Assembly (NCBI GenBank): GCA_000165345.1
Contig: CM000434.1
Span: 1,248,001-1,312,000, forward strand
Length of the DNA stretch: 64,000 nucleotides
Reading direction: 5' to 3'
Positions 39,837-43,787 of the stretch are shown here, piece by piece. Below the pieces are notes generated by a model that saw nothing but the letters and a program-made list of their open reading frames with translations, had not been told where the DNA came from and ran no database searches. Positions within the stretch are counted from its first letter, which is position 1. Each line of letters opens with the position of its first letter. The translations under genes were made by a program, and so were the position numbers.

Positions 39837-42800
39837 TTAGATTTTTTTTCTACTACGAGGGTTATTTTTGATTGATGCCTTGTGTTGAAGTTTTACCTTG
39901 GGAATATTTTCTGCAATTTTAATTTTTTTCCGAGGAACTTCAGCTCCTGTAGATCTATTCCTTGTAATTTTTCGTTTAAATGCAAACCCAATGCTCATAA
40001 TTAGATATTTTTCTGCGTATTTGATTGCGCTGCCTGCCCATCTTAAGTAGTTGTTGTTGCCTTTGTTGGAGCGCTTTGCATCATCAATTACAGCAAAGTC
40101 GACGCAAACGGCCTGCAAGTCTTCTCCTTCCCATGTAGATATTTTTTGCGTATACTCAGGAAAGTTGGGATTGGAATATTTAAGAAGTCTCTGTCTTTTG
40201 TCTTTTGATATTAGTTCAAAGCTTGTAGGTACTAGAAATGACGTCGTTGATGTTTTCTTATCTAATAAACTGGAGTTAGCCTTTATATAGCCAACTTTAA
40301 TTTCTCCAATTTCTCCTGGTTTGCTAATAGAGGTACTTTTAGATGGCTGGCCAATAGTAACCGTAGATATTCCATCGCTGCAGAACAGCTGAATAGCAGT
40401 AATTTGTTTAAGTGGTCCGACATGTTTCTGCTCCTTGAATGCATGCGGGAGAGGTAGTGTACCATTATTTAAAATTTCAAAGCCTTGTTTGCTATTATTT
40501 TCATGTGTGCTGTACCCAATTCTTTCTATATGAGTCCCATTTGGACAAAGAAATGCAGCAGAAAAGCCAGGAAAATTAAGTCCAAAAGACGGGGGATTTG
40601 TCATATCACATGTAGAAACAATTTTATTTAGGTGTATTTGTGGGATTCCAGTTTGAATAAATCCTTTATAAGGTAAGACAGCAAGTGGAGGAGGCTTTTC
40701 AAAGTAGGATCCGAAGGAAACAATACTGAATTCATTGTTTTTAAGAATTCCGCCCCCAAGATTGAGTAAGCCAATACAAACTCCTGTCCAACGGCCACCT
40801 CTCCATATTCTTGATTTGTGATTGCTAGCTTTTGATCTCGTTTTTAAAGAGTTCAAAGCCTCAATAGCTGAGCTATACGATTTAACACCTTCAATTTCTA
40901 ATTGTATCTTTGAAAGGGGTCGGGATTCATGGACAAGTTTGAAGAGAACTGGATCTCCAGGTAGGGTTCGTAAAAGCTCCTCCGTAACTTTGATAGAACT
41001 TTCTTTTGTTAGTTCTCGTTTAACAGCACTGATTTCATCACTAGTTAGTTCCTTGTAACCCAATAAAACTTCATGAATTTCCAGATTACTTTTTGAATGA
41101 GTTGGAGTAGCGTCTGACCCAACCTTAAAAACCGATTTTCCATCACTACAAAAGAATCTCATTGCTCCTATAGAGCCAAGTGGCCCTTTATTAGAGTTAT
41201 TATTAAATATTTGATCCGGTTTCATAAGAGATTCTGTTCCTCTAATTATTTGCCATGCGACCTCCACTCTATTTATTACACTTTTTTCAGGACATCTGAA
41301 GTTGATAGACCTTAGAAGAGTTCGTTTGCTTCTTGAACGTAACTCTCCAGTCATAATAATTTCTTCTGTTTGTTTGCTGAAGAGTAATTGAGCACGGGGT
41401 GAATGAAGCATACCTGGACAAGTAAATTCTTTTGAGTCAACATCCAGTTCTCCATTTCCTTCAGCAGAAAATCCATAGTAATCACTAATTTCCTCCCTTG
41501 ATGTCGGCTGAAAAGGAAATACAAATCCAAATCCAATATTGTTAATCATGCCTCCGCTTGTAATGTCTGCGCAGACTTTTGTCAATACTCCGTTGTTCCA
41601 AATCTTTTTACTTTGGTAGTTTGGAGGGAATTTTTCTGAGACAAAATTGAACTTGTTTTCCTTTGATTCTTGGGGTTTCGAAGAAGCGTTATTTTTTTGT
41701 ATAACATGAAACATTGAAATAGGAAGGTTTGACTCTGGTATAAATATTGAGTTTGATGAGAAGCTCTTAGATGGCGAAACTAGTATGGAGTTGACTTCAT
41801 CATAAGAAATAGTATCTTTTTGTACAATGGTATTAATAATATCAAAGTTATTTTCTTTATGCAAAGATTTCATTTTGTTCTCAAATATTTTGGATTCACC
41901 AATTATAAAGTAGTTTTCAGGATTATTTCCACAATCAAATTTTATAGAAACTAGCCTTCCTGAGGTTTTGTTGACTAATAACTGAATATTTTCTACTGCT
42001 AAACCAGACGGACATTCTATAGAGCCTTGGAATGACCTTAAACTGCTCCTAGCTTCATTAGGTTCCAAATTATCTTTACTTATTTGACTTTCTTGGCTGA
42101 CTGTTGATGATCTAAGCATTTGATCGCATCCAAAGCCTTTCCCATTATCCTTCTCAATCTTTACACTTGATGTAGCAATAATTTGGGGGAAATACGGCTT
42201 AATATTTTTCGAGACTTCAAATCCAATACTAGATATTAACATAGAGCCATGCATTACTCTTCCACATAATCCTTTAAACTCGTCTCCTGAAAAGCTTAAT
42301 CTTGAATCTATTGGATTGGATTTAAAAATATCAGGTAATAGTTTCAAAATGCTTCTCCTGTTGAAATCATGATCTACAAATTCATTTACATTTATAAAAA
42401 CTGGTCCAAATGTATACCTTTCTACATATTCTACAATTTCACTATTCTCTTTCTTATTATCATTTTTTAGATATGCCTTTACTACAAGCTTCTCGGTAGT
42501 ATAACCTAGTAAAACGGAATTGATATTTCCCAAGCGGACTTCTTTTGTTCCAAGAACTAATTTTTCTTCAGCAGCATTTCTCATATTTTTTTCAGCTTCA
42601 TTACTTACCAATATAGAAGATATTTCCCAATCTTTAACATTTGGGATTTGATCTTGCAAGTTCCAACTTGTAACATTTTGTAAGGCTTGTCCAATTGAAA
42701 ATGAAGTAATATAGTCGCTACAAAGGAATCTAACCATTATAATTTCTCCATTATTCACAGCGGAATCTATCCCACTTTTTTTATTATTTACACTCATATC

Positions 42801-43787
42801 AGTTGAACTTTTGAAAGAAGAACCTAGCGAATCTATAAATGAGTCTGAAGTAAATTTGCTTTCATCTAAAGACTTTTTTTCATCATTCTTTGAAACCGAA
42901 ACATTCTTATTCAATTTATTCAGTTGACTTGAAACGCTTTCTAAACTAACTGCTGTAATCTGATCCCCCACTATTGCGTCTATTCCAATTATTCGATATC
43001 CATTCGGACATTTAATATGGAAGTTTAGATCCTTTGTATTTGAAGGACTTACCCCTGAAATTTGATTGCATCGTTTAATATCTGGCTTTGAAAACTCGAT
43101 TTCTGGAACTCCTGTATAAATTAAACCTCTGTATTTATTCTGGGATAGAGGTCGTTTCTCCAGAAATTGAATCCTAACATTTCCTATAATGGGAGCTAAA
43201 TATGAAGAATCTTTTATAATCACACCACAAACTGATGTAGGGACACTCCCAACAAATGTTTGGGTTCTAAATAATTGTTCACTAGGTGAAATAAAACTAA
43301 GTAATTTTTCTGAGCCCTTTGGTAAAGTTTCTTCTTTGATTACTTGAATTAACCGTAGAATTGGAGTTTCAGAATCATATCCGAAAGCAATTTCATTGAT
43401 TCCACCACCCAAATACTTTCCTTTTACGTTTTTAGAGTTAAAATTCTCAGATCCCATATGAAATGAAGAACTTCCATCATTGCAGATAAATCGAATTCCT
43501 GTTATAAAAAGCTCTAGAGAATCTGTAAAGTATTCCAATCCGATAATTTGATAGCCTGCTGGGCAATTGAATTTTACAACTTCAGCCTTTCCAAACCTCG
43601 TCAATTCATTGAATGAGATAGCTGATGGTTCACAAAGGTTTTTGTTATATTCATAATAGTTAGAGACTGATAATTCTCCATTTCCTGTGGAGCCAAATCC
43701 TTGATAGTTTGAAATTCCGGAAGAGCCAATAAATTTTAATAAAAGAATCAACGCTGTCTTTAACAATGACTTTCTAAATTTACACAT
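39837..43787 (-). CDS. Large secreted protein (1316 aa) with five copies of a module [FI]-x-C-P-x-G-[YT]-x-I-x-x-[IV]-G ... [IL]-x-F-x-C-[NS]-D-G
   Basis: ATG start with signal peptide MCKFRKSLLKTALILLLKFIGSSG. The modules are FNCPAGYQIIGLEY...IRFICNDGSS, IKCPNGYRIIGIDA...VRFLCSDYIT, IECPSGLAVENIQL...IKFDCGNNPE, FRCPEKSVINRVEV...MRFFCSDGKS and FLCPNGTHIERIGY...IQLFCSDGIS. TTTGGGCGCGA lies at 43883-43893 upstream. Confidence 0.7.
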   Translation of the reverse strand: MCKFRKSLLKTALILLLKFIGSSGISNYQGFGSTGNGELSVSNYYEYNKNLCEPSAISFNELTRFGKAEVVKFNCPAGYQIIGLEYFTDSLELFITGIRFICNDGSSSFHMGSENFNSKNVKGKYLGGGINEIAFGYDSETPILRLIQVIKEETLPKGSEKLLSFISPSEQLFRTQTFVGSVPTSVCGVIIKDSSYLAPIIGNVRIQFLEKRPLSQNKYRGLIYTGVPEIEFSKPDIKRCNQISGVSPSNTKDLNFHIKCPNGYRIIGIDAIVGDQITAVSLESVSSQLNKLNKNVSVSKNDEKKSLDESKFTSDSFIDSLGSSFKSSTDMSVNNKKSGIDSAVNNGEIIMVRFLCSDYITSFSIGQALQNVTSWNLQDQIPNVKDWEISSILVSNEAEKNMRNAAEEKLVLGTKEVRLGNINSVLLGYTTEKLVVKAYLKNDNKKENSEIVEYVERYTFGPVFINVNEFVDHDFNRRSILKLLPDIFKSNPIDSRLSFSGDEFKGLCGRVMHGSMLISSIGFEVSKNIKPYFPQIIATSSVKIEKDNGKGFGCDQMLRSSTVSQESQISKDNLEPNEARSSLRSFQGSIECPSGLAVENIQLLVNKTSGRLVSIKFDCGNNPENYFIIGESKIFENKMKSLHKENNFDIINTIVQKDTISYDEVNSILVSPSKSFSSNSIFIPESNLPISMFHVIQKNNASSKPQESKENKFNFVSEKFPPNYQSKKIWNNGVLTKVCADITSGGMINNIGFGFVFPFQPTSREEISDYYGFSAEGNGELDVDSKEFTCPGMLHSPRAQLLFSKQTEEIIMTGELRSRSKRTLLRSINFRCPEKSVINRVEVAWQIIRGTESLMKPDQIFNNNSNKGPLGSIGAMRFFCSDGKSVFKVGSDATPTHSKSNLEIHEVLLGYKELTSDEISAVKRELTKESSIKVTEELLRTLPGDPVLFKLVHESRPLSKIQLEIEGVKSYSSAIEALNSLKTRSKASNHKSRIWRGGRWTGVCIGLLNLGGGILKNNEFSIVSFGSYFEKPPPLAVLPYKGFIQTGIPQIHLNKIVSTCDMTNPPSFGLNFPGFSAAFLCPNGTHIERIGYSTHENNSKQGFEILNNGTLPLPHAFKEQKHVGPLKQITAIQLFCSDGISTVTIGQPSKSTSISKPGEIGEIKVGYIKANSSLLDKKTSTTSFLVPTSFELISKDKRQRLLKYSNPNFPEYTQKISTWEGEDLQAVCVDFAVIDDAKRSNKGNNNYLRWAGSAIKYAEKYLIMSIGFAFKRKITRNRSTGAEVPRKKIKIAENIPKVKLQHKASIKNNPRSRKKI

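Follow-up and report, generated by a model that had tools for sequence, protein, structure and literature searches.

What is built from the five cysteine-containing repeats of a large secreted protein encoded close to the end of chromosome 6 of Cryptosporidium parvum, and what might such a protein do? The window analysed here is a 64,000-nucleotide stretch of that chromosome (GenBank assembly GCA_000165345.1, contig CM000434.1, positions 1,248,001 to 1,312,000 of the forward strand; positions below are those of the window). In the list of its open reading frames (ORFs) a single uninterrupted frame of 1316 codons occupies exactly 39837-43787 on the minus strand. The chromosome is 1.31 Mb long, and the frame lies approximately 20 kb short of its end, adjoining the gene for CP2. 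An initial annotation, made from the sequence, had read the product as a secreted protein of five short modules of unknown fold, possibly a lineage-specific adhesive repeat. The protein is identical, by exact-sequence look-up, to C. parvum Iowa II EAK90109.1 (UniProt Q5CWE4), which carries the database label "hypothetical protein". Because cgd6_5400 and cgd6_5420 flank CP2 (cgd6_5410; PMC12782386), we assign the gene by synteny with CP2 as cgd6_5420, the gene for dense-granule protein DG7. This identity, taken jointly with the repeat architecture described below, we regard as almost certain.

The DG7 chain comprises a signal peptide, five contiguous homologous modules of 190-320 amino acids (aa) and a 41-residue basic tail. 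All of its features lie on the minus strand:

39837..43787, minus: complete coding sequence with stop, 1316 aa (ORF list; exact-sequence look-up)
43716..43787, minus: signal peptide region, aa 1-24 (MCKFRKSLLKTALILLLKFIGSSG), from hydrophobicity and orthologue conservation; drawn as putative in Fig 5 of PMC12782386
43143..43715, minus: module 1, aa 25-215, predicted beta-prism I; Cys 52, 75, 102, 187
42183..43142, minus: module 2, aa 216-535, with long loop insertions; Cys 240, 260, 356, 508 (profile match E 4.5e-63)
42753..42956, minus: Ser/Lys/Asn-rich low-complexity insertion, aa 278-345, within module 2 between its second and third Cys (26% S, 13% K, 10% N)
41502..42182, minus: module 3, aa 536-762; Cys 554, 592, 619, 739
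40680..41501, minus: module 4, aa 763-1036; Cys 790, 832, 880, 1004
39963..40679, minus: module 5, aa 1037-1275, predicted beta-prism I; Cys 1060, 1081, 1136, 1228
39840..39962, minus: basic C-terminal tail, aa 1276-1316, 34% Lys+Arg, partly conserved among orthologues

Residues 7-26 form the only strongly hydrophobic 19-residue window of the protein (Kyte-Doolittle 1.54) and M1 is invariant among orthologues. That the protein is secreted is borne out by this signal peptide and, experimentally, by its location in dense granules (PMC12782386).

The repeats were first recognised by two short motifs, both of which are present five times: a CP-type motif (FNCPAG at residue 73, IKCPNG at 258, IECPSG at 590, FRCPEK at 830 and FLCPNG at 1079) and an FxC[SNG][DN]x motif (FICNDG at 100, FLCSDY at 354, FDCGNN at 617, FFCSDG at 878 and LFCSDG at 1134). 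None of 20000 shuffles of DG7 reached five copies of either class, the maxima being three and two, respectively. The consensus as originally written fits module 5 exactly and the others in part (CSDY in module 2, FDCGNN in module 3, CPEKS in module 4). The significance of the internal repeats holds up equally well at the level of profiles. Cutting an alignment of nine orthologues (C. parvum, chipmunk genotype, C. ubiquitum, C. canis, C. felis, C. ryanae, C. bovis and two further assemblies, with identity down to 50%) at the module boundaries listed above and comparing the segments with hhalign gave, for most pairs, E-values from 2.5e-9 to 2e-5: 2.5e-9 for modules 1 and 4, 1.3e-8 (193 columns) for 3 and 4, 5.7e-7 for 4 and 5, 7.7e-7 for 2 and 5, and 4.6e-6 for 1 and 5.

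The dimensions of the module are another matter. A hidden Markov model (HMM) made from the module alignment (A2) matches DG7 five times, at residues 25-214, 217-532, 538-762, 768-1035 and 1039-1275; because these matches tile residues 25-1275, the modules abut without linkers. The repeat unit is thus 190-320 aa rather than the 45-70 aa first proposed, and the two motifs are separated by 27, 96, 27, 48 and 55 residues in modules 1 to 5 rather than by 15-35. The supposed Ser/Asn-rich linkers likewise disappear: the Ser-rich stretch at aa 278-345 aligns as an insertion relative to every other module. Nor does each module have just two conserved cysteines. DG7 has 21 Cys, 20 of which are invariant in the nine orthologues and fall into five groups of four, the 21st being residue 2 in the signal peptide. 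Around these four invariant positions (C1 to C4) the landmarks run in the same order in every module: Y-x-G-[FL]-x-x-x-G ... C1, h-x-C2-P-x-G, h-x-F-x-C3-[SN]-D-G ... h-h-G, h-x-h-G-Y, W-x-G ... h-C4, I-x-S-I-G-F.

No nucleotide-level tandem repeats were found inside the DG7 gene, from which we conclude that its repeats are old, diverged protein repeats. The closest pairs are modules 1 and 4, which share GNGEL, and modules 2 and 5, which share TG[VI]P[EQ]I; since these are the most alike, their sequences suggest duplication of a block of modules.

Sequence searches give little indication of fold. Neither the whole of DG7 nor any of 21 module sequences has a match of any kind in Pfam at E<=10, in keeping with the earlier statement that the pattern does not fit sushi/CCP, EGF, PAN/apple or thrombospondin type 1 (TSP1) domains, and a sequence search of the PDB with DG7 and with the module profile returned only noise. 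Structure prediction of modules 1 and 5 gives a different picture. A fold search with the predicted models returned beta-prism I alone, the nearest neighbours (score in brackets) being IPD113 (12.2), Calsepa (12.1), WGA16 (11.8), Parkia lectin (11.4), Heltuba (11.2), ZG16 (10.9), a lamprey natterin-like protein (10.7) and VMO-I (10.6). The beta-prism I fold has three Greek keys, each four-stranded, and by structure comparison the models have three four-stranded Greek-key sheets about a pseudo-threefold axis. The fold, first described as unknown, is therefore predicted with high probability for modules 1 and 5 to be beta-prism I (the jacalin, VMO-I and ZG16 fold); for modules 2-4 we infer the same fold from their homology.

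The models also account for the motif pair that drew attention to the repeats. In both, C2 comes right after a strand and C3 is the final residue of the strand two positions on; C4 lies within the penultimate strand and C1 follows the N-terminal hairpin. From these positions the two motifs are, in the predicted structures, four consecutive strands of one Greek key (a strand leading to CPxG, its hairpin partner, a strand ending in FxC, and the [SN]DG turn with the strand that follows), and the 45-70-aa unit first described corresponds to one Greek key per prism.

To what extent is this module found elsewhere? When the module profile was run exhaustively with HMMER against 1.84 billion representatives, four proteins were recovered: the DG7 orthologue cluster; P0018, a 1635-aa protein of C. 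ryanae (E 1.8e-8) with orthologues in all intestinal species; P0019, a 1395-aa protein of C. andersoni/muris/serpentis (E 3.8e-5); and P0020, a 1051-aa protein from a JGI metagenome (E 7.4e-5), the sole match outside Cryptosporidium. The suggestion of lineage specificity is thus upheld at the level of sequence, and the module family is shown by the search to be confined to Cryptosporidium plus one metagenomic protein. P0020 consists of numerous short FxCPxG...I-x-F-x-C units, which score above the gathering thresholds of both Pfam Jacalin (30.4 bits, cut-off 22) and Pfam Dermatopontin. It offers a weak sequence bridge from the DG7 module to jacalin, and hints at a possible kinship between repeats of the dermatopontin and jacalin types.

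The C. parvum member of the P0018 group is EAK90425/Q5CXY0 (locus tag cpbgf_7004490), which on its locus tag we read as cgd7_4490. Under the name DG5 the product of that gene has been published as a dense-granule protein discharged into the lumen of the vacuole; knocking it out has little effect. DG5 is a true paralogue of DG7. It has the four-Cys module (HMMER E 1.8e-8; hhalign of DG7 module 1 against the first DG5 module, E 1.7e-8), enters a shared alignment (A4), and resembles DG7 in its signal peptide and dense-granule storage. It differs in having seven modules in 1633 aa as opposed to five in 1316 aa, an N-terminal disordered extension of approximately 140 aa, a second module lacking the C2-C3 pair in intestinal species, and a presence in gastric species. 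The four Cys columns are common to all 24 modules compared (five from DG7 and seven from DG5, in two species each), and the consensus C1 ... h-x-C2-P-x-G ... h-x-h-x-C3-[SDGN]-[DN] ... h-h-G ... h-G-[YF] ... h-C4 ... I-x-x-h-G-[FAV] holds for the DG5 and DG7 modules, for which we propose here a DG5/DG7 four-Cys beta-prism module family. The DG5-like protein of the gastric species (C. andersoni, C. muris and C. serpentis) has 1346-1395 aa and 35-37 Cys, compared with 28 Cys in intestinal species. No DG7 orthologue from gastric species was recovered in the exhaustive search, although it would form a separate representative, and the five-module protein may have arisen within the intestinal clade. 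DG8 (cgd8_5300) was also considered as a DG7 paralogue and rejected: it is described as highly disordered and lies outside the family.

The second module of DG5 is informative about how the four cysteines pair. In 7/7 intestinal species C2 and C3 are both replaced (FKLPNS and SIEF[RKT]E), in 3/3 gastric species both are retained (YSLICLGS and SISAYCIG), and C1 and C4 are invariant in all ten. Because C2 and C3 vanish jointly while C1 and C4 stay, each module of approximately 200 aa probably contains two disulfides, C2-C3 and C1-C4, in place of the single bond envisaged at the outset. The C2-C3 disulfide would sit within one Greek key, joining the Cys of CPxG to that of FxC as in VMO-I, an arrangement to which both the covariation and the location of these Cys in the two models, at the ends of strands belonging to one key, point. 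The C1-C4 disulfide would close the prism by linking its penultimate strand to the N-terminal hairpin.

What, then, would a chain of five such prisms do? Beta-prism I domains are binding modules, and tandem copies confer multivalency. In the DG7 modules the loops that vary in length, and are modelled with low confidence, are those from C2 to C3 and those preceding the last strand; from the analogy to jacalin-related lectins we infer that the ligand-binding end of the prism is at these loops. As to where the protein would act, PMC12782386 (PLoS Pathog, 31 Dec 2025) names DG7, whose dense-granule location had been predicted by HyperLOPIT, and places the hemagglutinin (HA)-tagged protein in dense granules of sporozoites and merozoites by expansion microscopy and immuno-electron microscopy. 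In trophozoites and meronts DG7 is mainly punctate, with a low-level signal at the parasitophorous vacuole membrane (PVM) that partly overlaps CP2, and its transcripts rise on deletion of CP2, possibly a neighbour effect (PMC12782386). The PVM is stained by VVL, a lectin that binds N-acetylgalactosamine (GalNAc), and CP2 has been described as putatively O-glycosylated.

On balance we favour, with modest confidence, the view that DG7 is a series of five disulfide-stapled beta-prisms acting as a multivalent lectin-like binder in the parasitophorous vacuole (PV) or at its membrane. It is favoured because true lectins (Calsepa, WGA16, Parkia, Heltuba, ZG16 and the natterin-like jacalin domain) make up most of the best-scoring fold neighbours that follow IPD113, tandem copies are multivalent, and the compartment is rich in O-GalNAc glycoproteins. 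From its store in dense granules DG7 would pass, once invasion has taken place, into the vacuole or onto the PVM, and would serve there as a rigid lectin-like binder of multivalent character. Glycans, the likeliest being those of O-GalNAc-rich mucin-like proteins coating the PV and PVM, would be held by the variable loops found at one end of every prism, and binding would cross-link or organise this glycoprotein layer. That the ligand is a glycan we put forward tentatively, by analogy with the lectin neighbours, as something short of an even chance.

Several observations weigh against this view. Many beta-prism I domains are not lectins, examples being Cry toxin domain II, PirB and MABP. The module 1 models are of moderate confidence (the best of five has a predicted local distance difference test, pLDDT, score of 77, the other four 57-61). 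No module matches Pfam Jacalin, VOMI or Dermatopontin at E<=10, and hhalign of the family profile (A4) against VMO-I (1vmo) is insignificant (E 0.012, probability 3.5%, 17 columns). By eye, in alignments A2 and A4, the aspartate of the jacalin GxxxD motif is not evidently conserved, the equivalent position being A, I, N or I according to module; the same inspection shows a G-N-G motif near the N-terminus of modules 1 and 4 and an invariant T88-D89-S90 in module 1. Finally, DG7 is weakly detected on the PVM and mostly punctate (PMC12782386), and its paralogue DG5 is dispensable.

The strongest alternative retains the five beta-prism I modules and has them serve as a protein- or lipid-binding scaffold rather than a lectin, as in MABP, Cry toxin domain II and PirB, with the Lys/Arg-rich tail aiding attachment to acidic vacuole membranes. 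The apparent lack of a conserved jacalin-type sugar-binding motif across modules and the lack of a Pfam Jacalin match would fit such a scaffold, as would the partial localisation to the PVM with CP2; among the structural neighbours are several non-lectins (Cry domain II, PirB), and a tail that is 34% basic could bind acidic membranes. The top structural neighbours after IPD113 are nonetheless mostly true lectins, the compartment entered is glycan-rich, as VVL staining shows, and tandem multivalency is typical of lectins. We consider the scaffold possible, if on the unlikely side.

A role as a lineage-specific adhesive repeat protein for parasite attachment to host cells, the function first suggested, is improbable. 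Cryptosporidium attachment involves lectin-glycan interactions, and DG7, being secreted, rich in Cys and composed of several domains of lectin-like fold, has features that might befit an adhesin. Apicomplexan adhesins are stored in micronemes, and DG7 has neither a transmembrane segment nor a hydrophobic C-terminus of the glycosylphosphatidylinositol (GPI) type. It is found in dense granules, not in micronemes or at the surface; its transcripts are low in comparison with CP2 and its expression follows the pattern of other dense-granule proteins; and after invasion it appears in intracellular puncta with a weak PVM signal (PMC12782386).

Less probable by far is a MACPF or other pore-forming protein in which the prisms serve as targeting domains. 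The idea has its origin in UniRef, where the C. hominis orthologue of DG7 is named "MACPF domain-containing protein" (and the C. andersoni DG5-like protein "LCCL domain-containing protein"), and pore-forming modules are indeed found together with beta-prisms in natterin-like proteins, V. cholerae cytolysin and MPEG1/MABP. Pfam finds neither MACPF nor LCCL at E<=10, however, nor anything else in DG7; the five modules fill residues 25-1275, leaving no space for a MACPF domain of approximately 350 aa; and MACPF genes are reported to be lacking in Cryptosporidium (PMC7522308). A MACPF identity, whether by sequence family (PF01823) or by fold, is rejected, and both automatic names look wrong. As for the notion that the repeats are a chance or compositional artefact of a low-complexity, AT-rich genome, the low genome GC and one Ser-rich stretch are all that speak for it, and it is refuted by the shuffles, by the hhalign E-values over up to 193 columns, by the invariance of all 20 Cys across species merely 50% identical, by a gene free of nucleotide tandem repeats and by the modelling of two modules to the same domain.

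The identification of DG7 rests on its neighbours, two of which lie on the same strand and serve as anchors of synteny outside the repeat protein:

37380..39515, minus: CP2 (cgd6_5410), from the ORF list; called as 705-711 aa in three assemblies
35113..37116, minus: cgd6_5400 (SG3), a 667-aa ORF with variable-number tandem repeat (VNTR) content; SG3 is named in PMC12782386

The first encodes a Thr/Ser-rich, Lys-rich protein that has a signal peptide, which agrees with what has been published for CP2 (708 aa, 80 kDa, signal peptide 1-18, Thr/Ser-rich, approximately 20% basic residues), a small-granule protein that relocates to the PVM. Its sequence includes a long Lys/Glu-rich repeat region (EKQRQKQL-type), with tandem repeats of 33 and 66 bp (38181-38357), as well as approximately 25 consecutive Thr encoded by a GTAGTG repeat (37669-37734). 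The second anchor has a 63-bp repeat in 6.3 copies (36098-36492) and a 6-bp repeat in 19 copies (35372-35487), and its length varies with assembly (667 versus 728 aa), in line with its role as a marker for VNTR typing. The exact sequence, the CP2-like neighbour and the VNTR-bearing cgd6_5400 together place the gene beside CP2 on the telomere side of chromosome 6, as expected of DG7.

No paralogue of DG7 turned up in the window when the module profile was run over the ORFs of all six frames. On the other side of DG7, at 44454-45800 on the plus strand, lies a 448-aa ORF with an N-terminal signal-like sequence and a C-terminal hydrophobic segment and without a Pfam match; 33-bp tandem repeats at 44914-45040 encode ELSGDE(A/V)xT(A/V)x units, and the product, too, is probably a subtelomeric protein that is secreted or membrane-bound. 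At 50974-52917, plus strand, an ABCG-type half transporter (Pfam ABC_tran and ABC2_membrane) stands just within the AT-rich terminal region. GC-content, averaging approximately 30-35% over the window, is approximately 30-37% around the DG7 gene and falls to 17-25% at 52000-64000, the extreme end of chromosome 6, where the sole ORF above 100 aa is that of a 429-aa signal-peptide protein (56878-58167). No TTTAGG telomere repeats occur anywhere in the window.

Dense-granule proteins build the interface on which Cryptosporidium lives on the gut epithelium, and to our knowledge nearly all of them are annotated without a known domain. That DG7 is a dense-granule protein, its name and its localisation were already known, from the only paper in the literature searched that mentions cgd6_5420 (PMC12782386); none was found for Q5CWE4, EAK90109 or related identifiers. 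The domain analysis in that paper (SMART/PROSITE) reports for DG7 only a signal peptide and "predicted repeat domains". New relative to the literature searched are the assignment to beta-prism I, the four-Cys module with its putative disulfides, and the paralogy of DG7 and DG5. On the predicted structures the repeats are a divergent variant of a well-known fold; they constitute no new fold, domain kind or system. Recognition of the prism array makes two hypothetical proteins, DG7 and DG5, testable: it predicts that they bind a ligand (most likely glycans), which disulfides they form and where the domains should be delimited in expression constructs, and it corrects the misleading automatic names MACPF and LCCL. 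Possible redundancy of DG5 and DG7 could also explain the slight phenotype of the DG5 knock-out. By analogy one may speculate further, on what we take to be rather long odds, that DG5 and DG7 are parasite-made multivalent lectins weaving secreted Tn/O-GalNAc mucin-like proteins (CP2, SG3 and others) into a layered PV/PVM coat, the family having been invented, or having diverged past recognition, within Cryptosporidium. If true, a lectin-mucin lattice would help to build the unusual extracytoplasmic niche of this parasite.

How does the DG7 module compare to known beta-prism proteins? With the jacalin-related lectins (PF01419; Heltuba 1c3k, Calsepa 5xfi, Parkia 1zgr, ZG16 7o3i, WGA16 3woc, griffithsin) it shares a strand-turn-strand rhythm, h-x-G-h ... 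h-x-h-x-F, and the arrangement of prisms in tandem within one chain, as in Parkia lectin and the myrosinase-binding proteins. It differs in length, at 190-320 aa as opposed to approximately 130-150 aa, because of its loop insertions; in the two conserved disulfides that each module would contain; in having no sequence match to PF01419, and hence no place in that family by its HMM; and in that the canonical sugar-binding aspartate of GxxxD is not evidently conserved. Dermatopontin (DERM, PF14704) has a CPxG...h-x-F-x-C type of motif, and in P0020 one and the same type of unit matches both DERM and Jacalin, whereas no DG7 or DG5 module matches DERM at E<=10.

The resemblance to VMO-I (1vmo; VOMI, PF03762) is of a different nature. 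VCPTGY...NNIQFRCSDEAVLVG of VMO-I (checked against 1vmo) is close to FNCPAGY...TGIRFICNDGSSSFHMG of module 1, and the intra-key disulfide of VMO-I corresponds to the C2-C3 pair proposed for DG7. In VMO-I the motif is present in all three Greek keys of a single 163-aa prism; in DG7 it is present in one key only, that is, once per module, there is no Pfam VOMI match, and C1-C4 would be an additional, second disulfide. The likeness is one of motif and fold, not a demonstrated family membership. Beta-prisms are, in addition, components of toxins and matrix proteins (natterin-like protein 5zu4, V. cholerae cytolysin 1xez/4gx7, Bap1/RbmC, Cry domain II, PirB, IPD113 8d2j and MABP). DG7 carries no pore-forming or other effector domain and, unlike those proteins, its mature chain is predicted to consist wholly of prisms and a short basic tail.

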